Assembly (NCBI GenBank): GCA_030682135.1 | Contig: JAUXQT010000035.1 | Span: forward strand, 1,022-65,021 | Length of the DNA stretch: 64,000 bases | Direction of reading: 5' to 3' | DNA from: Nitrospirota bacterium | GTDB lineage: Bacteria; Nitrospirota; Nitrospiria; Nitrospirales; Nitrospiraceae | Shown here: in pieces, positions 3,305-22,672 of the stretch | Numbering within the stretch: position 1 is the stretch's first letter | Layout of the letters: each line of letters opens with the position of its first letter | Notes under the pieces: generated by a model | What the model saw: only the letters and a program-made list of their open reading frames with translations | The model's database searches: none | What the model was told of the DNA's origin: nothing | Position numbers and translations under genes: made by a program

Positions 3305-4648
3305 TTAGTATCGTGAATGTCTGGAAGGCCCACCGACTGAGGCTCCTGGCCGATGAGCCGAACCACGGTTCTCACCCTGGCGGGATCGTCGACCAGCTGG
3401 TTCCGCGCCTCGGCGGGGCCGCGCGCGAGGATCCTGATAGTCGCTGGTCGGCATCGGGGCCGGAGCCGGAAGCGGAGCAAACACAGGAAGCGCGAGTTTC
3501 TTCGTCTCGATCTTCAACTGTCTCACCATGCGAAGATACTCTCGCTCTTCGGACTGAGACAGAATCAGGTAGGTCGACCCTTCCTTCTCTGCGCGGCCGG
3601 TCCGCCCTGTTCGGTGGACATACGAATTCGGGTTGGTCGGCAATTCATAGTGAATGACTTGCATGACATCCTGAATATCGAGGCCTCTGGCTGCCACATC
3701 GGTCGCCACAAGCGAGCGGATGTTGCCGGCCCGAAAGGCGCCGAGCGTCCGTTCCCGCTGCGCTTGGCTATGATTGCCGGTCAACGAACCGACCGAAGCC
3801 GGTTCTCCGCCCAAATGGGCCGCTAAGCGTCGCACCTTATACTTTTGATCACAGAACACCATCGACCGCTCCCCACCCTTCATGGTCTGGAGCAAGGTAT
3901 GCACCAGCTGCGTACGCACCTGGTCTCCTGGCACGACATAGTAGGCATGCACGATCGTGGTCGGGGTATTGATCCCGGGGTCGACAGAGATGCGCGCGGG
4001 ATCGCGCTGCATGCTCTGAGCGAGCGTCTGAATATCCCCTGAAAATGTCGCGGAGAACAACAGGGTCTGGCGCTCAGCCGGAAGGAGACGAATGATCCGT
4101 TGGATATCGCGCAGGAATCCGCGGTCCAACATCTGATCGGCTTCATCCATCACGAGAAACGTCACGCCACCCAACTTCAAGTGACCGGATCCGGCCAAGT
4201 CGAGCAACCGGCCTGGCGTCCCAACCACCACCATCGGCGGTCGTTGCAATGCACGGTACTGACGCTCGATCGGCGTCCCGCCATACACCGACATGGAGGT
4301 CACGGACGCTGGAGCATACTTGCGTAATTCCATTTCAATCTGCAGCGCCAGCTCCCGCGTGGGCGCCAGCACGAGAAACTTCGGTCCTGAAGAATGGCTG
4401 GGACCGGCAGACTTGACATAGGGGCCTGGCGCAGGCACCGAGGCCTCCCGACGCATGACCTGTTCGATAATCGGTAATAGAAACGCGAGCGTTTTTCCGC
4501 TCCCAGTTTTGGCTTGCGCCATAATATCCCGACCTTCCAGCGCCACGGGAATGGCAGCCTGCTGCACCGGGGTCGGTGTCGAGAGGCCTGCCTGTAACAG
4601 GCGCTGGGCAAGGGAAGGCTGTAGATTCATATCAGCAAACGTAGACAT
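3305..4648 (-). CDS. DEAD-box ATP-dependent RNA helicase
   Basis: Q motif (TPTPVQ), AKTGSGKT, MDEAD, SAT, HRTGRTGR, basic C-terminal tail. AAGGAG RBS ahead of MSTFADMNL. Confidence 0.9.
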   Translation of the reverse strand: MSTFADMNLQPSLAQRLLQAGLSTPTPVQQAAIPVALEGRDIMAQAKTGSGKTLAFLLPIIEQVMRREASVPAPGPYVKSAGPSHSSGPKFLVLAPTRELALQIEMELRKYAPASVTSMSVYGGTPIERQYRALQRPPMVVVGTPGRLLDLAGSGHLKLGGVTFLVMDEADQMLDRGFLRDIQRIIRLLPAERQTLLFSATFSGDIQTLAQSMQRDPARISVDPGINTPTTIVHAYYVVPGDQVRTQLVHTLLQTMKGGERSMVFCDQKYKVRRLAAHLGGEPASVGSLTGNHSQAQRERTLGAFRAGNIRSLVATDVAARGLDIQDVMQVIHYELPTNPNSYVHRTGRTGRAEKEGSTYLILSQSEEREYLRMVRQLKIETKKLALPVFAPLPAPAPMPTSDYQDPRARPRRGAEPAGRRSRQGENRGSAHRPGASVGGPSRHSRY

Positions 4649-6446: not shown

Positions 6447-8504
6447 CTACAATAACAGGTCCAATTGCTGGCTCTCCGTCACCGGAGGCGAGCAGGTCTG
6501 CCGCTGACAGACATACGCAGTCGGCTGCCCGTTTACACTCGTCTTCCCCGCGGCCAGCGGCAAGTCAGAGTCTCCAGCACGAGCAGCTTCGACCACGAGC
6601 ACCGCACGATTCGGCAGATAGCGTCGATGGACCGTCGAGAGCAACGACTCCGTCATCGCCTCGCCGCGTGTGCCGACCACAACAATTTCTTGCGGTGTCG
6701 TCAGGTACCAGTCCAACGAACAGAGCAGAGCCGATGCGCCATAGGCGTTATGCTCCATGACGCTCCGGAACACCTGGAACTGGCGTTCAGCCAGATCATG
6801 ATACCGCTGCTCTCTTGTGAAAGAGAAGAGCCGCAACAAGACCGAGGCGACAATGGCATTACCCGAAGGGATCGCGCTATCGGTCCCGGATTTCATGCGA
6901 TGGAGCAGGACTTCGTGATCGCGGCTCGTATAAAAACACCCACCAGCAACCTCATCCCAATATCGTTCCAAGAAGCTGTCTGTCACGTCGCGGGCCTGAT
7001 CCAGATACCACCGGTGCGACGTCGCTTCAAATGCATCCAACAAGGCGGCAGCCAGACAGGCCGCGTCGTCTAAATAGCCGTTCAGGCGACCCTTTCCTGC
7101 CGTGACCGTCCGATAGACTCGCCCGCTTTCAACCGCATAGTCGAGCAGGAAGGTGAGCGCCCGCTCTGCTGCCGCCAGATAGGACGGAATCCCGAACGCA
7201 TGATAGGCATCGAGATAGGCGGACACCATCATCGCATTCCAACTTGTAAGAATGTTGTCGTCCCGCTGCGGCTTCACGCGTTGCTCCCGTACAGCGAGCA
7301 ACTTCACCCTGGCAGACCGCAACAACACCTCCAACTCCTCCTGAGCCTCGGAGGTGAGCGGAACGTCACCGAGCCGATTTAACACGTTCTTGCCTTCGAA
7401 ATTTCCGCTCTCTGTCACGCCATAATGCCGGCAGAACTGCTCAGCCAAGTCAGCGCCCAGCACCGAAGCAATCTCTCCAGGCTCCCAGACGAAATAGATT
7501 CCTTCACGCCCCTCGCTGTCGGCATCCTGCGCGGCAAAGAACGCACCGTCCGGATGCGTCAGTTCACGACGCACGTACTCCAGCGTCTCTTCCACGACTT
7601 CACGAAACCGAGGCTCTTTGGTCAGACGCCATCCATCGAGATAGATCCGCACCAACTGAGCGTTATCGTAGAGCATCTTTTCGAAGTGAGGAATCAGCCA
7701 TTGGCCATCCACGGAGTAGCGATGGAACCCGCCACCAAGATGATCGTAGATTCCTCCGGCTGCCATCGTTCTCAGCTGTAAGAGCACGTGCTCTTGATGC
7801 AAAGGGTCTTTCGTACGGGCCGTCTGACGCAGCAATAAGTTGAGCGGGGGGACCGTTGGAAATTTCTGGCCCTCCCCGAATCCGCCATGGACCGGATCGA
7901 AGAACTGCCCTAAGCTCTTCGCCGCTTCATCGAGCAATCGATCCGTCAAGGGATCGCCCGACGGCTTCGGCGTCCCCACCCGCAGCAACCCGGCCTTCAC
8001 CTTCTCCACATTCTTGCGGACATCGTCGCGATGATTCCGGTAGGCCTCGACGACCCCGTTCATGACTTCGGGAAATCCCGGCAAGTTGTAGCGGGGCGCC
8101 GGCGGAAAATACGTACCCCCGTAAAACGGTTCTTGATCGGGGGTGAGAAACATCGTCAACGGCCACCCACCACCCCGCCCCAAAAACACTTGCGCGGACT
8201 TTTGATAGATATCGTCCACATCCGGGCGCTCTTCGCGATCAACCTTCACGTTGATAAAGTGCCGATTCATGAGCTCGGCAATCTGGATATTGTCGAAGCA
8301 TTCATGGGCCATGACATGACACCAGTGGCAGGCCGAATACCCAATCGACAACAAAATCGGCTTGTCCTCTGCCTTCGCCCGCGCCAAGGCTTCCTCGCCC
8401 CAGGGATACCAATCCACCGGATTCGTCGCATGCTGCCGCAGATAGGGGCTGGATTCGGCAATCAGCCGATTGGGGGCACGGTCTGCTCTCGCTAAGTCTG
8501 TCAT
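6447..8504 (-). CDS. thioredoxin-domain protein, YyaL/DUF255 (SSP411-like)
   Basis: N-terminal [28 protein letters not shown]...[13 protein letters not shown] followed by a long alpha/alpha-toroid-like region. Confidence 0.85.
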
Positions 8505-15345: not shown

Positions 15346-15530
15346 GATCGATCGTCTCTTCCCGTGAGCCAAACTCACGCCGAGCGTAATCGAGGCAAAG
15401 AGAAATTGCCAGAAAATAGTCAGACGAATCCGTGAGGAACTGTTCTTGTTCCCCACCCGCGCGATCCGTCCTTGAACCCCTGCAGCCGGATTGTTACCAT
15501 GCCGCTTCTTCTTTTCCTCTCAACCGGTCT

Positions 15531-18338
15531 ATGGCACAGATCCGACAGCCACCTGCTCCGTCCCGCGATCTCATCGTCGAAGGCGCACGCCAAAACAACC
15601 TCAAGAACATCTCACTCCGTATCCCCCACAATCAGGTCACGGCCATCACGGGCGTCTCAGGATCGGGAAAATCCTCTCTCGCGTTCGACACGTTGTTCGC
15701 CGAAGGCCAATGGCGCTATGTGGAATCGCTCTCCATTTATGCCCGCATGTTTCTCGATAAGGTCAACCGGCCCGATGTCGACCGGATCATCAACGTTCGG
15801 CCCGCCATTGCGATTGAACAGAAGAATCCCATCCGCACCGCCCGCTCGACGGTCGGAACCACGACCGAAATTGCCGACCTCTTGCGCCTCCTGTTCGCCA
15901 AAGTGGGCCATCCGGTCTGCCCCGATTGTTCTATCGATGCACGCAGCTTTCATCCTGGCAGCGTCGCCGACGACCTCCTGAGTCATTGCGCCGGCACACG
16001 AGCCATGATCCTCTTTCCGGTCAAAGCACCGGCGCCGAAACAGGACCAGGCCTTTCTCCAATCGCTGTTGCTCCGCGGCTTTACCAGAGTGCAGTGCGGC
16101 GAGGCCATCCTCGACCTCCACGACACACTCGGCCTTCCCATAGTCAGGCCGGACCAACTGTATGTAATCCTCGACCGGCTCGTGATCCGGGAAGACAACC
16201 GATCCCGCCTCGTCGAAGCGATTGAAACCGCCTTTCGCGAAGGCGAGGGCCAATGCCGCGTGGAGGTCATCGACCAGGGCCCACGAATCTACAGCACAGA
16301 TTTTCGCTGCCAACAATGTGGCAGAACCTTCGAACCGATTCGGCCCGTCCTCTTTTCCTTCAACCATCCGCTCGGTGCCTGTCCCGAATGCAAAGGGTTC
16401 GGCAATATTCTGCGGTACGATCCCGCCCTCGTCATCCCCGACCACGACAAGTCGTTGGCCCAAGGCGCGATTGAACCCTGGAGCAAACCCAGCGGCGATT
16501 GGTGGCAAAAGCAAATGTTCCTCGCCATGAAGCGGCGTGGAGTCGACCTCACGATCCCCTACAAAGACCTGCCACAGACGATCCAGCAGATCCTCTGGCA
16601 GGGAGAAGGCAAACTGGAGGGCGTACAACAATTCTTCGAATACTTGGAGGGAAAGCGCTACAAACTACATGTGCGCGTGATGCTCAGCCGCTACCGGACA
16701 CCGGTCTCCTGTCCGACCTGTCAGGGGTCTCGCCTCAGACCGGACGCGCGGTATGTGAAGATCGCGGGCACTGACATTCATGAGCTCTCTTCACTCACGA
16801 TCGAAGCGACTGCCGCTTGGGTCACGTCTCTCCCCCTCTCTCCCTATGAAGAACAGGTCGCCCGCGACATCCTCAGACAGTTAACAGCCAAGCTCGGCTT
16901 TCTCCTCCGCGTGGGCCTCAGCTACCTCACCCTTTCCCGTCAAACCCGCACGCTCTCGGGAGGAGAGGCTCAGCGCGCAACCTTGGCCAACCAACTCGGT
17001 GCCCGTCTAGTCGGTACGCTCTACGTCCTCGACGAACCGACCATCGGACTCCATCCCCGTGACACCGCCACACTCGCCGGCATCATGCGAGAGCTGGCGA
17101 GCCAGGGTAATACGGTCGTCGTCGTGGAACATGATCGCCAGATGATGTTGGCAGCCGACTATCTCGTCGAGATGGGCCCCTTGTCCGGCGAAAAAGGCGG
17201 CGAGGTGATCTGCGCAGCGCCCAGACAGGAATTCATCGCGGACCGGCGGTCGATCACGGCACGCTACCTGCGTAACGAAGACGAGATTGCCACGCCACGC
17301 GCCCGACGGAAAGGGAATGGGAAATTTCTTGTCATCGCCGGAGCCTGCGAGAATAACCTCAAAGATCTGTCCGTCCGTATTCCGCTCGGCATGCTGGTTT
17401 GCGTCACCGGCGTCTCAGGATCCGGCAAAAGCACCTTGGTCGAAGACACGCTGTATCGCGCCATCGCCAGAGCCTTTCGTATTGAGTCACTGCCCATGGG
17501 CAAGTTTTGCGCGATTAAAGGAGTCGAACATCTCACCGGCATCAAACTCATCGATCAAGAACCGATCGGCCGAACGCCACGCTCGAATCCGATCACCTAC
17601 CTGAAAGCGTTCGATGAAGTTCGCGCCCTCTTCGCGTCCGAACGCGAGGCCCTCAGAAGCGGGCTCACGCCTGGGCACTTCTCCTTCAATACCATCGGAG
17701 GCCGGTGCGAGAAATGCGAAGGAAGCGGCGTCGAAAAGCTGGAGATGTACTTCTTCGAAGATATCTATGCGACCTGCGAAGCCTGCGACGGGAAGCGATT
17801 TAAACCGAACGTCCTCTCCATTCGTTATCGCGGGAAAACGATTCATGATGTGCTGCAAATGACCGTCGACGACGGGCTGGGATTTTTCAGCGGCTCACCC
17901 AAGCTCACCGAGAAACTCCACCTGCTCTCCTCCATCGGGCTGGGCTATCTCCGGCTCGGCCAAGCCGCCACGACCCTTTCAGGCGGCGAAGCCCAGCGGT
18001 TGAAAATCGCCGCCGAGCTCAAAGTCTCGTCTGCGAAAAATGTGCTCTACATCATGGATGAACCGACCACCGGACTGCATGTCGAAGATATTAAGAAGCT
18101 CCTCGCAATGCTGCAGAAACTGGTGGGTAGCGGCCATACCGTGGTGGTGGTCGAACATAACCTCGACGTCATCAAATCGGCGGATTGGATTATCGACTTA
18201 GGGCCGGAAGGCGGCTCGGCAGGTGGACAGATCGTGGCAGAAGGACGACCGGAACAGGTGGCGAAGATAGCGGCGTCCCACACTGGGCGATTCCTCGCAG
18301 GCGCGCTCATGCCGGCCATTGATAACCTTGGTCACTGA
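15531..18338 (+). CDS. uvrA: excinuclease ABC subunit A
   Basis: Two ABC modules (GVSGSGKSS twice, LSGGEAQR twice), zinc-finger CxxC pairs. Start at MAQIRQPPAP (ATG 15531). Confidence 0.95.
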   Translation: MAQIRQPPAPSRDLIVEGARQNNLKNISLRIPHNQVTAITGVSGSGKSSLAFDTLFAEGQWRYVESLSIYARMFLDKVNRPDVDRIINVRPAIAIEQKNPIRTARSTVGTTTEIADLLRLLFAKVGHPVCPDCSIDARSFHPGSVADDLLSHCAGTRAMILFPVKAPAPKQDQAFLQSLLLRGFTRVQCGEAILDLHDTLGLPIVRPDQLYVILDRLVIREDNRSRLVEAIETAFREGEGQCRVEVIDQGPRIYSTDFRCQQCGRTFEPIRPVLFSFNHPLGACPECKGFGNILRYDPALVIPDHDKSLAQGAIEPWSKPSGDWWQKQMFLAMKRRGVDLTIPYKDLPQTIQQILWQGEGKLEGVQQFFEYLEGKRYKLHVRVMLSRYRTPVSCPTCQGSRLRPDARYVKIAGTDIHELSSLTIEATAAWVTSLPLSPYEEQVARDILRQLTAKLGFLLRVGLSYLTLSRQTRTLSGGEAQRATLANQLGARLVGTLYVLDEPTIGLHPRDTATLAGIMRELASQGNTVVVVEHDRQMMLAADYLVEMGPLSGEKGGEVICAAPRQEFIADRRSITARYLRNEDEIATPRARRKGNGKFLVIAGACENNLKDLSVRIPLGMLVCVTGVSGSGKSTLVEDTLYRAIARAFRIESLPMGKFCAIKGVEHLTGIKLIDQEPIGRTPRSNPITYLKAFDEVRALFASEREALRSGLTPGHFSFNTIGGRCEKCEGSGVEKLEMYFFEDIYATCEACDGKRFKPNVLSIRYRGKTIHDVLQMTVDDGLGFFSGSPKLTEKLHLLSSIGLGYLRLGQAATTLSGGEAQRLKIAAELKVSSAKNVLYIMDEPTTGLHVEDIKKLLAMLQKLVGSGHTVVVVEHNLDVIKSADWIIDLGPEGGSAGGQIVAEGRPEQVAKIAASHTGRFLAGALMPAIDNLGH

Positions 18339-18354
18339 CACCTGTGTTCCCACC

Positions 18355-18651
18355 TCACTTCGTCTGTTGCTCCAACAGGGACGGCTTACGAGAACCATGA
18401 AACACAGCCAACACAACGATGCTCAGTTCCCGCTCGCGAAAATAGACGCAAAAAGGAAATCGTCGTGCGACAGCCTTGCGCACATCGCGGTGCACAATTG
18501 GAAATTGTTCAGGGTGACTGGCTATGCGATCAATCACACTCTGAATTTCAGCGAGAAAGTCTGCTCCAAGCCCTGCACGTTCCTTCTCATACCAATCACC
18601 AGCCTGATCAAACTCGCGGCGCGCCTGTTGCCGAAAAACAACCTGACGCAT
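18355..18651 (-). CDS. type II toxin, RelE/ParE family (ParE-like)
   Basis: 98 aa; ...FPIVHRDVRKAVARRFPFCVYFRERELSIVVLAVFHGSRKP; TAATG overlap with the upstream antitoxin. Confidence 0.8.
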   Translation of the reverse strand: MRQVVFRQQARREFDQAGDWYEKERAGLGADFLAEIQSVIDRIASHPEQFPIVHRDVRKAVARRFPFCVYFRERELSIVVLAVFHGSRKPSLLEQQTK

Positions 18652-18881
18652 TATTTTTTCCAGCGTGATTGCGAGTCAGACTTGATGGTATCCCAAGAAA
18701 TCGTGTCATCCGGTGCAGCCTCATCATCGGCAAGGCGACGATCGATCTCTGCTTTCTCAGATGGACTGGGTGGGAGGAGTCCAACTTCAATGGCGACCGA
18801 ATCCCAAATATCCTGAGCCAAGGCGATGCGGTCTGCGACGCTCATGCTGTCAATGCCCAGTGTGTGTAGTGCTTGCCCCAT
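18651..18881 (-). CDS. addiction-module antitoxin (TIGR02574-like)
   Basis: 76 aa; SVADRIALAQDIWDSV...EKAEIDRRLADDEA...ISWDTIK pattern; AGGAGG RBS before the ATG at complement 18879-18881. Confidence 0.7.
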   Translation of the reverse strand: MGQALHTLGIDSMSVADRIALAQDIWDSVAIEVGLLPPSPSEKAEIDRRLADDEAAPDDTISWDTIKSDSQSRWKK

Positions 18882-19161
18882 AAATGCCTCCTTTATCAGC
18901 GCATATTCTACATCATTGATTGAATATCCCTCTACCATCCCCTCGCAGACAAACTGGCAGAGAGGGTGCTGCACTCATGGTAACCGAGTTATCAGGGACG
19001 AAGCTCACGCACTGCCCCCTGCTGCAGCAATTCAGGAAGCTTGATTTTTGCTTCATACGAACCGACTGCAATCTTCATGACGTTATTCCTGCCTTACAGA
19101 CTCATTGAGTCCAGCATATAGACCAGTCTAAATTGAATCAACGATCCCGACGAAAGGCCGT

Positions 19162-19423
19162 ATGAACGCAACCGCCGAACTGCATGTCGAAGATATTAAG
19201 AAACTCCTCGCGATGCTGCAGAAGCTCGTGGGTAGCGGCAATCTCGTCATCGTGGTGGTGAAACACAACCTCAACGTGATTAAAAATGGCAGGCTGGATT
19301 ATCAACCTAGGCCCGGGAAGCAGCTCGGCAGACGGACAGATCGCGGCAGAAGGGAGACCGGAGCAGGTGGCGAAGGCAACAGGCTCATTTACGGGGCAAT
19401 TCTTGGCCAAGGCTTTACCGTAG
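19162..19423 (+). pseudogene. uvrA: diverged, frame-broken duplicate of the uvrA 3' end
   Basis: Aligns at nucleotide level with uvrA ~18056-18338 (LHVEDIKKLLAMLQKLVGSG...). A 1-nt indel near 19285-19295 shifts the UvrA-like reading (ADWIINLGPG..GQIAAEGRPEQVAKA) out of frame. Confidence 0.8.
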
Positions 19424-19698
19424 TAATGCAAGCCAAAGTCCCAACAATTTGGCGAGATACTTGATGACCATGATTTGCTCTCGTACACTTAACCAAAGAC
19501 AGCACGTTTACTAGTCCGTTGGACGGAATGTAAATTCACTCAACGAGTTGGCATTACGCTAATCTGCATAAGATTTAGCAGAAAATTGTTCTAGCGCTCC
19601 AGCTGATTGTTATAAAAATGCTTCGGGCGTATTATCCGGAAAAATCGATAGCGTATCACACGGATAGAAAATCGAAGAACCAGCTCTTACACGGATCC

Positions 19699-19716
19699 GC
19701 CTAATCATTATTAGGC
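19699..19716. promoter_or_regulatory. perfect 7-bp inverted repeat in the AT-rich spacer
   Basis: GCCTAAT-CATT-ATTAGGC, 32 nt upstream of the ATG at 19748. Confidence 0.3.
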
Positions 19717-19747
19717 GCACTCGCGCACTGTAACCACACGACACCAG

Positions 19748-20920
19748 ATGGATGCCAATCCTGAATTTGATATCCGTACACCGTTAGGCCGCGAGAGACT
19801 GGCTCAATACCACGTCGCGTCCGGCAGACAGGACCAGCTGGCCCTGACGGAGATCGTCGACGCTCTAGAGTCGCTCGTGCACCGCCTCGGCACACGGGAC
19901 TGGATGATCTGGCGCTACGGTGGTTTCATTATTCCAACAGGTGATAAGAGCCAGCGATTGGTTGATGTTGTGGAGGCCGTTGACCTCGGCCACACACTCG
20001 CGATTCTCGCTCAATGCGATGGATTCAATGAACTTCTCAGAGGATTTGACAACCCCTCACAGTTCGATGACTCGATATTCGAGGCCCAGATGGCACGGTG
20101 GTGTCTTGATCAACCGCACATCAAGGCACTACGATTTGCACCGAAGTACACCGTGCTTGGGAGAGATAAACGGCCGGACTTCGAGTTGAATACCCCAATT
20201 GGCCGCCTTGTCTGCGAGTGCAAGCGGCTCCACCTTCGCACTCAAGAGTGGGCAAGCCGTCTGATTCGTATTACCGATGCCTTCGACACCGCGATGCATG
20301 CAACGGGGATTCCACAGGATGTGCGACTCGAAGTGACTGTCAACGGAACGATTCGTGGTGATCTGCGAGTTACTGCCGAGCATGCATGTCGCGAGGTGCA
20401 GAATGGATCCGCGGGAACAACGATGGAACACGGCCCCTTCTCCTTGAGAATTTCTCCGATTGGATCAGAGATTGCTTCGAACGGCTGCATCGTTAAGTAC
20501 GGAAGGATTCGGGTCGGCTCAACACCGACCGAAATCAAACCAGAGAATTACTATTTACGCCTCTCCAGCCCGTGGATGGAGCGCGCCATCTTTCGTACTA
20601 TTGGAGCCGTCATCAATGCCGCACATCGACAACTCCCTGCAGATCATGACTCCGTGATCTTCGTCGATGGCCCTCAGCTCGAAGGTCGGAGGGCAGCGGC
20701 GGCGAGGCTTCTGCAATCGGAATATACTCACTGTCTTGCGGTCTCGGTCGTTCGAGGAGGCAAGGCGGAGTTCTCACAGCGAAGTATCAACAAAGAAGTG
20801 GTCGATTGGATTTTCCTCGGCAAGGCACCTACTCTGATCCGCCGTCTGCTATATATTTTCGCTTGGAGGTTGGGGCTGCGGCGCGCACTGCTACGCAAGC
20901 TAACACGGGCCACTACTTAG
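19748..20920 (+). CDS. hypothetical protein with PD-(D/E)xK nuclease-like signature
   Basis: FEAQMARW ... KRPDFEL ... GRLVCECKRL gives E / PD / ExK spacing typical of the restriction-endonuclease fold. The remaining ~220 aa are unassignable. Confidence 0.6.
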   Translation: MDANPEFDIRTPLGRERLAQYHVASGRQDQLALTEIVDALESLVHRLGTRDWMIWRYGGFIIPTGDKSQRLVDVVEAVDLGHTLAILAQCDGFNELLRGFDNPSQFDDSIFEAQMARWCLDQPHIKALRFAPKYTVLGRDKRPDFELNTPIGRLVCECKRLHLRTQEWASRLIRITDAFDTAMHATGIPQDVRLEVTVNGTIRGDLRVTAEHACREVQNGSAGTTMEHGPFSLRISPIGSEIASNGCIVKYGRIRVGSTPTEIKPENYYLRLSSPWMERAIFRTIGAVINAAHRQLPADHDSVIFVDGPQLEGRRAAAARLLQSEYTHCLAVSVVRGGKAEFSQRSINKEVVDWIFLGKAPTLIRRLLYIFAWRLGLRRALLRKLTRATT

Positions 20921-21155
20921 TGATGCGAGCGGCACCTAACAAAGGTAAGGCCTCGCAAAGGAGTGGATAGCATTTGCGGGAAACCAGCAGTCGATAAATG
21001 ATTCCTGTTCCCTTCAGTTTCCCAGAAGAAAACTCGAGAGCATTTCTGCTTCGGGCATACCCCCGCGAGGGATCCGAGGACTTCACCAACAGCACCCCGC
21101 GTGCCCACTCACAGAGTTTGCCGAAACGAACCGACGGTCGCAAGATCTCCGACAA

Positions 21156-22382
21156 TCATAACCCCGGTCTCGACCCCGCTACGATGCTGAGCTCCAACGG
21201 AGCGCCGGCTCGCCTGATGTCGAGCTTCAAGGTCTGCCCTGTCTCAACCTGACAGAGCCGTTTCGCGTCCCGATCAGACGATACCGCCGAGAGCGCTGCA
21301 CCATTACAGGCCACGACTCGATCACCGACTTTGAGACCCGCTTTCTCTGCAGGCAGGCCGCTCCGGAGTTCCCGCACGAAGTAATAACGAGCCCCGGCGA
21401 TTTCTTGCAACTCCCAATTAACGCCAATTCGTCCCGACCCGATCAAGCCGGTTTGCGAACCGAACCGGGCGAGAATGCGATGGGCAATGACGCGGGCCAA
21501 ACCCTCGGGATCATCGGCCGTGGCATCGGAACTATGCCCCTCGCCATTAAACAAAACCACACCGCTTTCCACGTCGATCATCCGAAAAGCCAGCGACACG
21601 CGGCTGACTTGCTCCCCCTCGGTTCGCTCCCATTGCTGGACTTCACCCACAATAATCGCATGGGCGCCGACAAGCTTCCCGACTTTCAGCACCTCGGCAT
21701 CGTCGGCATACTTGAGTTGGATGACCTGCTCCTTGAACACTTCGTCGAGCTTGGCTCGCTCGACAATATTGATATCCAGATCCAAGAGTAAGGTCGTCAT
21801 GATCCCGGCGGCACGCGAACCGGATCCCGGGGTGGTTCCCGCATCGACGAACGGCATCACGGCCATCGTGCGATAGCGATCGATCATATCCCGATTGATT
21901 GGCCCGACGCCGGTGACCACCGGCTCAGGACGTCCGAGCATGCCGCCAGTGCCCAGAGCAGCTGTGCCGGACGAGGCACAGGCTCTGCGCCGTTGGAGAA
22001 TCGCCGAGGGCGCGCCCCAGGCGCAGAGTTCGTCGTTCACCAGCACGATGTGATAGGGATACTCGCGTTGATGTTCTGACGCAACGTTGGTGAAGGGATA
22101 GAAAATGCAGCCGCCGATCCAGACCGAGATCGGGCAAAACGCCAACTCATAGAGCCATTGCTTGCGGGCCGTGAGGGAATATTCCCAGACCAGCAGACGG
22201 CCATCGTCGCGCAACACGCGATCCGGCCGACCGACCTGTTCGATCACCTCGGTCTTCGTCATCGGTACAGCCAGCCGGTCCAGCTTGGATTCCGACTTCA
22301 CCACGGTATAGAGGACGCCGCAGCCGGAGCAGGCACCGGCAAGGAGCACCAGCCCCATCCAACAGCCAATCCGTTTGAGCAT
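21156..22382 (-). CDS. lipoprotein with BamE-like, CsgG-like and PDZ regions
   Basis: Lipobox LLAGACSGCG; MTKTEVIEQVGRPDRV (SmpA/OmlA-like); AVMPFVDAG...IVERAKLDEVFKEQ...GAHAIIVGEV (CsgG-like); GLPAEKAGLKVGDRVVACNG (PDZ). Confidence 0.65.
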   Translation of the reverse strand: MLKRIGCWMGLVLLAGACSGCGVLYTVVKSESKLDRLAVPMTKTEVIEQVGRPDRVLRDDGRLLVWEYSLTARKQWLYELAFCPISVWIGGCIFYPFTNVASEHQREYPYHIVLVNDELCAWGAPSAILQRRRACASSGTAALGTGGMLGRPEPVVTGVGPINRDMIDRYRTMAVMPFVDAGTTPGSGSRAAGIMTTLLLDLDINIVERAKLDEVFKEQVIQLKYADDAEVLKVGKLVGAHAIIVGEVQQWERTEGEQVSRVSLAFRMIDVESGVVLFNGEGHSSDATADDPEGLARVIAHRILARFGSQTGLIGSGRIGVNWELQEIAGARYYFVRELRSGLPAEKAGLKVGDRVVACNGAALSAVSSDRDAKRLCQVETGQTLKLDIRRAGAPLELSIVAGSRPGL

Positions 22383-22504: not shown

Positions 22505-22672
22505 GCAGGATGCTCAGACAGGCCGTCCAGCAAGGCCGCAGCGAAGCTCTCACTAGGGGTGGATGAGATGATCCCAACTGCGCGCGTCGAACGAGGGCCT
22601 TCTGAGGCCGCGCGTTCCGCGAGCAAAGGGATCGTCCCATCCACCCCGCTCACTTTTTCAGCATCCTGCTAG
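22505..22672. repeat. RepA copy 3 with a RepB unit nested in its centre
   Basis: Termini GCAGGATGCTCAGACAGG / CACTTTTTCAGCATCCTGCTAG; inner palindrome GGGGTGGATGAGATGATCCC / GGGATCGTCCCATCCACCCC; core 22577-22628 is RepB in reverse orientation. Confidence 0.8.

Follow-up and report, generated by a model that had tools for sequence, protein, structure and literature searches.

Integrative and cis-mobilisable elements accrete at the 3′ ends of genes, as do ICESt/CIME at fda of Streptococcus thermophilus, tRNA-anchored islands and tycheposons, and such systems depend on an identifiable tyrosine recombinase and on short att cores. Chromosomal integrons form ordered arrays of small, mostly single-operon cassettes, many of which are toxin-antitoxin (TA) pairs. 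Here, we analyzed a stretch of 64,000 nucleotides (nt) of Nitrospira DNA (hereafter, the window; positions 1,022 to 65,021 of contig JAUXQT010000035.1, assembly GCA_030682135.1), in which type II TA genes lie between the 3′ end of the repair gene uvrA and a second, degenerate copy of that end. This locus is probably one unit of a TA cassette array that accumulates at the uvrA 3′ end in Nitrospira and in which no recombinase gene was recognised, and it is best explained by insertion with long target duplication that needed no recombinase, with spread by homologous recombination.

The closest described system is that of the restriction-modification (RM) modules, which reportedly insert with target duplications of 46-423 bp and without mobility genes (PMC2853133; PMC3874152), and we used the descriptions by Nobusato et al. 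(2000, Gene 259:99) and Furuta, Abe and Kobayashi (2010, PMC2853133) for comparison. A life cycle has been proposed for them in which the repeats serve amplification, release and re-invasion (PMC2853133), and a 2013 review gives the long-target-duplication mode for RM only (PMC3874152). A literature search on TA cassettes with duplicated gene ends found nothing specific.

The insert in the window works like this class. As in the RM cases, a few-gene module of the addiction type lies in or beside a gene end between long direct repeats of variable length (46-423 bp in RM, ~190-285 bp here), the repeat is single-copy in a related genome free of the insert, and the insert holds no transposase or integrase. 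Specifically, the insert is absent from the closest cassette-free relative (locus L081), which has one tail only and aligns with the window at 83-86% nucleotide identity on both sides; the direct repeats (18053-18338 and 19162-19423) are longer than 30 bp and single-copy in L081; and the insert is shorter than 20 kb (2.8 kb) with no mobility-related gene recognised, the open reading frame (ORF) ORF390 being unmatched. Nevertheless, the insert falls outside the class as defined. Its cargo has no R and M genes and consists of type II TA genes (ParE, an antitoxin, and fossils of Phd and PIN genes), the same gene tail is reused so that ordered arrays of up to three tails arise, the repeated DNA codes for part of an important repair protein, and toxin genes are swapped within the cassette. 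The locus is best read as an addiction module that entered with long target duplication; in this case the cargo is TA genes, and insertion recurred at one gene tail, so that arrays formed.

Two copies of the uvrA tail in the window

The anatomy of the locus and of its surroundings, in window positions, is as follows.

15432..18338, + strand: uvrA, intact; TIGR00630, 1087 bits (cut-off 729.8), model positions 2-924 of 924
18053-18338, + strand: tail A, the working uvrA end, within the intact uvrA
18339..18354, + strand: native 3′ flank of uvrA, 16 nt, CACCTGTGTTCCCACC, part of the repeated tail unit
18355..18651, - strand: ParE/RelE-family toxin, 98 aa, intact; full-length match to PF05016, E = 7.1e-9, 36.6 bits (gathering score 23)
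18651..18938, - strand: antitoxin of the Unstab_antitox / TIGR02574 family, intact; PF09720, E = 1.8e-10, 41.1 bits (gathering 23.3); TIGR02574, 54.6 bits (cut-off 31.9)
18983..19018, - strand: fossil of a PIN (VapC-type) toxin gene, first 12 codons, VSFVPDNSVTMS; by likeness to the PIN gene start of locus L186
19019..19078, - strand: fossil of a Phd/YefM-like antitoxin gene, first 20 codons of an 80-aa gene; by alignment with the intact genes in L163, L169, L170 and L171
19079..19161, no strand assigned: conserved flank upstream of the Phd start, ending at the tail-copy junction; homologous in L163, L169, L170, L175 and L186 up to ...CCGTATG(G/A)ACG
19162..19423, + strand: tail B, frame-broken copy of the last ~94 codons of uvrA, a pseudogene; by BLASTN, repeat search and alignment
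19424..21155, + strand: further inserted DNA, an AT-rich spacer and ORF390 (19748-20920); not in L081 or L163-L186
21156..22640, - strand: native convergent neighbour, a CsgG/LpoB-PDZ lipoprotein gene; PF17820, PF13180 and PF03783; synteny with L081, L082, L004 and L163

The uvrA gene matches the equivalog TIGR00630 over its full length, with the C-terminal ABC module included, and its real start codon is probably downstream of 15432. The host of the window is a Nitrospira: the last 300 UvrA residues match metagenome-assembled genomes of Nitrospira best (76-84%), and the amino acid identity of the window UvrA with Nitrospira UvrA is 81-95%.

A model that had read the letters of this DNA without database searches (the sequence-only reading) had claimed that the tail of uvrA recurs downstream as a diverged, frame-broken copy, and this was borne out. 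Tail A and tail B matched in BLASTN with 81.8% identity over 214 nt (E = 7e-53), and their aligned core was 78.9% identical over 242 nt. The repeat runs from 18053/18056 to 18338 (~285 nt), recurs at 19162-19423 and is reported as families D1 and D2 by the repeat search. Relative to tail A, tail B has insertions of 1 nt near 19168, 3 nt near 19245 and 1 nt near 19285, and it ends in its own stop at 19421-19423. The further claim that DNA had been inserted at the uvrA 3′ end also stood, since in L081 only one tail is present and the next gene follows without a gap: the stop codons of uvrA (7475-7477) and of the convergent CsgG/LpoB-PDZ lipoprotein gene overlap. Compared with L081, the window has 2,817 extra bases at 18339-21155, of which 1.1 kb lie between the tails, and the GC content is 45-56% over 18.3-21.0 kb versus 57-63% on both sides. 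No third tail remnant was found in 19424-21260 (BLASTN with word size 7, TBLASTN).

The concern that the region might collapse to a single tail on reassembly was checked on assembled contigs only, and contigs of two studies keep both copies. One public run yields a Logan contig of 4,869 nt that matches 17016-21884 without a difference (100% identity), and a second study yields a contig of 3,062 nt that departs from the window at one base (99.97% identity); both span both tail copies at uniform depth, and one of the two runs may be the window's own source. Misassembly of the two-tail structure is excluded at this contig level. The samples do contain several Nitrospira strains with variant sequences at the uvrA locus, a setting in which two strain variants of the tail could be chained into one contig. 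However, in addition to the two spanning contigs, the same kind of structure is found in more than 10 related contigs from other samples and in one complete genome (CP092079.1), and the probability left for such an artefact is negligible. A joint from 18235 to 19346 was considered as evidence of excision and was rejected, as it comes from a low-depth contig of a relative that maps across the two similar tails.

To characterize tail B, tails A and B and the L081 tail were compared using nine outgroups. Eight shared derived sites group A with B, versus 3 and 1 for the alternative groupings. The 31 substitutions found only in B split 12:9:10 by codon position, versus 9:2:27 on the functional branches (Fisher p = 0.0013). 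Because its substitutions are spread evenly over the codon positions and it carries three indels, tail B is a pseudogene; it has no function and, as judged from this substitution pattern, evidently decays neutrally.

Between the two copies, the sequence-only reading had placed a ParE-type toxin with its antitoxin and a 26-codon N-terminal remnant of a Phd-like gene. All three are present, and only the length of the remnant was revised, to an ORF of 28 codons (18992-19078, - strand) of which 20 match an intact relative gene (70% over 20 aa in tblastn). The toxin and the adjacent upstream antitoxin, whose stop overlaps the ParE start at 18651, are intact and match their own families, as a type II TA pair does; the window ParE has, in addition, a weak Protein Data Bank match to ParE2 (8c26). 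Homologues of ParE with 82-90% identity lie at the same spot beside uvrA, convergent with it, in L163-L179 (more than 12 metagenomic contigs, 85-93% identical to the window in nucleotides), and the amino acid identity of the antitoxin in relatives is 90-92%. Only this pair looks functional today, and it would presumably be an addiction module that resists its own deletion.

The Phd-like gene of the window has lost ~170 nt at a CTGCC microhomology. Relatives kept it as an intact 80-aa gene, which scores 25.2 bits with PF02604 (below the gathering score of 29.8) and 20.4 bits with TIGR01552 (just below the cut-off of 20.8). The conserved flank at 19079-19161 is presumably the promoter region of the cassette; a promoter scan between the Phd fossil and tail B gave no convincing sigma-70 site.

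Cassette arrays behind uvrA in relatives

We surveyed 160 uvrA loci from genomes and metagenomes. Only L001 (Nitrospira) and L120 (not Nitrospira) had second tails among them, each with inserted genes between the copies, and in no cassette-free relative examined was there a second tail. Further loci, among them L180, L181 and L186, were reached via VapC homologues, and PIN genes in relatives were identified from precomputed Pfam matches. The arrays seen in these loci are ordered. L001 and L181 (the complete genome CP092079.1) have uvrA, vapBC and a tail. L180, which is 92.8% identical to L001 in nucleotides, has uvrA, a Phd93->ParE124 pair, a decayed tail, a spacer, vapBC and a tail. L186, whose UvrA is 89% identical to that of the window, has uvrA, a PIN<-Phd80 pair, tail B1, an 85-nt spacer, vapB-vapC and tail B2; its B1 is in frame and 89% identical to its own working tail in nucleotides, and its B2 is 85% identical. 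In L175, remnants of all three cassette types are present, and in L163-L168, a 5′-truncated VapB (88% identical to that of L001) stands where the tail would be. The junction from the vapC stop to the tail is identical in L001, L181, L186 and L187, and the same vapBC pair with its promoter/operator region occurs elsewhere in L183 and L184, there without a tail. We considered the possibility that the duplication is tied to vapBC alone and rejected it, since L186 and L180 show one tail per cassette.

Comparison with L186 places the window in this series. Tail B of the window is the positional counterpart of B1 and has the same C-terminus type and the same 5′ boundary, ...CCGTATG(A/G)ACG, which is located 84-94 nt from the Phd start. 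The 5′ edge of tail B could also have been a secondary deletion junction, given that L175 has ...CCGTATGGACG in common with the window and differs beyond that point; this reading was rejected, as from L186 the edge proves to be the original boundary, with the deletion in L175. The stretch 18973-19018 of the window is 89% identical to 4097-4141 of L186, which is the start (first 12 codons) of its PIN gene (MSFVLDNSVTMR...). This match indicates that, in the clade of the window, the antitoxin-ParE pair took the place of the PIN gene within a resident Phd-PIN cassette, a swap of one toxin for another that the alignment records as a fossil. The same metagenomes also contain strains that have the PIN version, as seen from loose contig ends at 18976.

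Two claims of the sequence-only reading are overturned by these comparisons. The ParE module did not create the duplication, having come into an older Phd-PIN cassette of which 12 PIN codons are left at 18983-19018, and the locus is not a single element, being one unit of a multi-cassette array. Its claim that the insert had carried a replacement end holds in part: a foreign replacement end is not shown for the window, where both tails bear own-lineage markers, and the claim holds for L180 relative to L001, where new C-terminal codons came with the insert. As to age, the downstream tail appears by its position to be the earlier functional end, as the sequence-only reading had it. The spacer and vapBC that follow the working uvrA in L001 and L181 still come after the tail of the uvrA-proximal cassette in L186 and L180. 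In addition, the decayed tail of L180 retains the C-terminus of L001 (RFLTNALARASSID) and the spacer that L001 has before vapB, and the working uvrA of L180 ends in new codons, GKIFGADGS.

These arrays also bear on an in-situ origin of the repeat, that is, tandem duplication of the uvrA tail by replication slippage, with the cassettes landing between the copies later by chance. The two tails of the window are sister sequences relative to L081 (8:3:1), their branch lengths agree with one split followed by neutral change in B and constraint on A, and L169, L170 and L171 have one C-terminus type on both tails, all of which speaks for such an origin. However, in more than 170 loci a second tail was never seen without inserted genes separating it from the first, each cassette of a multi-cassette array comes with a tail of its own, and L180 versus L001 ties the new tail to the arrival of a cassette. 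We consider this origin highly improbable.

Signatures of recombination were found within the repeats. Both tails of the window bear markers of its own lineage, with lineage-specific bases shared as far as 18216, and, in the core region, each downstream tail examined had its closest match in the working tail of the same genome. The shared markers of the window tails would imply gene conversion between the repeats or capture of a resident tail. The two tails of L001 are identical over 80 nt from the 5′ edge of the repeat, and of the 42 differences beyond, 25 are at third codon positions; this pattern indicates two functional alleles joined at a breakpoint. The window shows a weaker form of this step, with 91.5% identity in the first 59 nt versus ~75% after (p = 0.006). 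Repeat length is 190-285 nt, and the 5′ boundary varies by cassette type, lying at about -285, -235 and -215 to -190 nt from the stop. The 16-nt flank CACCTGTGTTCCCACC is also found after the uvrA stop in L186 and after the downstream tail copies in L169, L170 and L171. The downstream tail is shortened in L169, L170, L171 and L175 and has the C-terminus type of the working tail (..ALMPATDNNGS) and the 16-nt flank, and the window and L186 are of another type.

The UvrA C-terminus past ...SHTGRFL (18290-18338 in the window and its equivalents) is hypervariable among Nitrospira lineages and among the tail copies of one genome, and it is exactly at 18298 that sequences of other strains from the same metagenomes part from the window. 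The variable C-terminal extension may have been generated by repeated insertions at that point.

Another side observation concerns L175, where a 52-aa ORF (reverse complement, 1166-1324) corresponds to an internally deleted form of the 93-aa Phd-like antitoxin in the Phd-ParE cassette of L180. From this resemblance, a third cassette type is present in the clade of the window.

DNA and genes downstream of the array

The sequence-only reading had ended the insert at the tail copy; the inserted stretch is real and extends beyond it, over 2.8 kb. Its distal part holds ORF390 (19748-20920), which had no Pfam, NCBIfam, PADLOC or PHROGs match and no counterpart in any related locus, and which is a separate, later insertion. 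The empty site of L081 could itself be a secondary loss via recombination between tails.

In many Nitrospira, a conserved gene of ~460 aa lies between uvrA and the lipoprotein or DUF179 genes (L004:5949-7439, L082:5971-7350, L083:7212-8600, L084:7776-9176 and L001:8471-9850), and in L180 a neighbouring fragment matches DUF3422. Because this gene is missing in the clade of the window and in L081, uvrA abuts the lipoprotein gene there. In the complete genome CP092079.1, a DUF5615/DUF433 toxin-antitoxin pair is located between the vapBC-tail unit and the lipoprotein gene (L181:6277-6894). A palindromic repeat family of the window has a copy in L170 immediately past the tail array (reverse complement, 4154-4202, corresponding to 22555-22602 of the window), and this family and the cassette hot spot adjoin in several strains.

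The locus outside Nitrospira (L120:3138-7977, Ga0207677_10001525) has uvrA, then a 251-aa gene, which ends in a PEP-CTERM-like motif as judged from the sequence by eye, and then the last ~784 nt of uvrA once more. This second copy is 89.9% identical in nucleotides and has an open frame of 264 aa. From this structure, the same kind of tail duplication, with cargo other than toxin-antitoxin genes, is present in another phylum.

Possible route of insertion and spread

From the structures described above we infer the following mechanism and order of events. A cassette would enter right behind the conserved uvrA core that ends in ...SHTGRFL, and its entry would duplicate ~190-285 nt of the tail and leave uvrA intact, hence insertion with long target duplication. 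The former tail would be displaced downstream and would then decay. Once it lies between two tails, a cassette could be passed to another Nitrospira by normal homologous recombination, in which uvrA is the left homology arm and the downstream tail copy the right one; the product would be the same if the cassette were excised as a circle between the repeats and re-entered through one crossover. New cassettes would in this way come to lie beside uvrA, with a tail between successive cassettes and with hybrid tails in the array. In the lineage of the window, a Phd-PIN cassette would have been inserted, its PIN gene replaced by antitoxin-ParE, the orphan Phd gene shortened by ~170 nt, and ORF390 inserted later; the older downstream vapBC cassette would either never have been there or have been lost.

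The structure of the arrays could also be the work of a different agent, an integrase. The loci might be remnants of site-specific integrative elements, CIME-like or tycheposon-like, whose tyrosine or serine integrase targets a core in the uvrA 3′ end and whose attP carries a replacement tail; after repeated integration and decay, or through mobilisation by an integrase acting in trans, TA cargo between attL/attR-like tails would be all that is left. Accretion at an att site is classically recognised by direct repeats of a gene 3′ end on both sides of acquired DNA and by tandem arrays of them, and our loci resemble accreted integrative elements in their tandem units parted by copies of the target gene 3′ end, in the intact gene, and in cargo that would outlast mobility genes. 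Within each cassette type, the junction between cassette and tail does not change from lineage to lineage, which an attP borne by the cassette would predict, the working uvrA ends in new C-terminal codons after insertion (L180 vs L001), and the highly conserved ...ADWIIDLGPEGG... stretch common to all tail copies could hold a core.

On the other hand, searches of the window insert for integrase, transposase and resolvase domains (Pfam, NCBIfam, PADLOC, PHROGs) were empty, and the precomputed Pfam lists of L163, L169-L171, L175, L180-L182 and L186 contained no recombinase gene. Within or beside about 10 annotated Nitrospira arrays, and within the window insert, no gene for a tyrosine or serine recombinase came to light. 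The sequence-only reading was right that no integrase is now present in the insert, but its supposition that one had once been there is backed by nothing seen here. The units are only 0.7-1.1 kb, and the repeats of 190-285 nt, with a 5′ boundary that depends on the cassette, are longer and more variable than typical att cores. The 80-nt identity block of L001 begins exactly at the 5′ edge of the repeat, as homologous exchange predicts, and no viral contig of IMG/VR encodes a lone uvrA tail or a relative of the window tail. Taken together, we regard an integrase-made origin as unlikely, though it is the main alternative.

Similarity to chromosomal integrons is seen in the ordered small cassettes, many of them TA pairs, and in new ones appearing to enter nearest the anchor. 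Unlike integrons, the loci showed no intI, attI or attC, no search having been aimed at attC folding, and they have fossil gene tails as separators and cassettes with their own promoter/operator regions on either strand.

Several points weigh against recombinase-independent insertion and spread by homologous recombination. The recombination events are deduced from assembled contigs. For the initial duplication, an illegitimate event has to be assumed in addition. The tail types of L169, L170, L171 and L175 versus those of the window and L186 need gene conversion, unequal crossing-over or transfer between lineages, and the bases shared by tails A and B to 18216 require, if B is the displaced resident, either gene conversion at a later time or a crossover within the first ~30 nt. 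A cryptic recombination function of ORF390, which belongs to no known family, is conceivable for the window, and ORF390 is in no other array.

A broader proposal, which we put forward only tentatively, is that the uvrA 3′ end in Nitrospira is the anchor of a recombinase-free, integron-like capture platform and that other phyla use uvrA and other housekeeping genes in the same way. The tail would be a portable homology arm, and the cassettes would spread by homologous recombination, stack by arrival and swap their toxins in place. L120 is the only locus outside Nitrospira here that bears on the part concerning other phyla.

How chromosomal TA modules move without a transposase or integrase has long been unclear, and the arrays behind uvrA offer a concrete, testable route. 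In this route, the duplicated tail of a conserved gene would keep that gene intact and would then serve as a homology arm, with an ordered cassette array behind a core repair gene as the outcome. The exchange of a PIN toxin for ParE within a resident cassette can be read from this locus, and the same process may explain the hypervariable C-terminal extension of UvrA in Nitrospira. For annotation, caution is needed, as short 'UvrA-like' ORFs downstream of uvrA are fossils and not genes.

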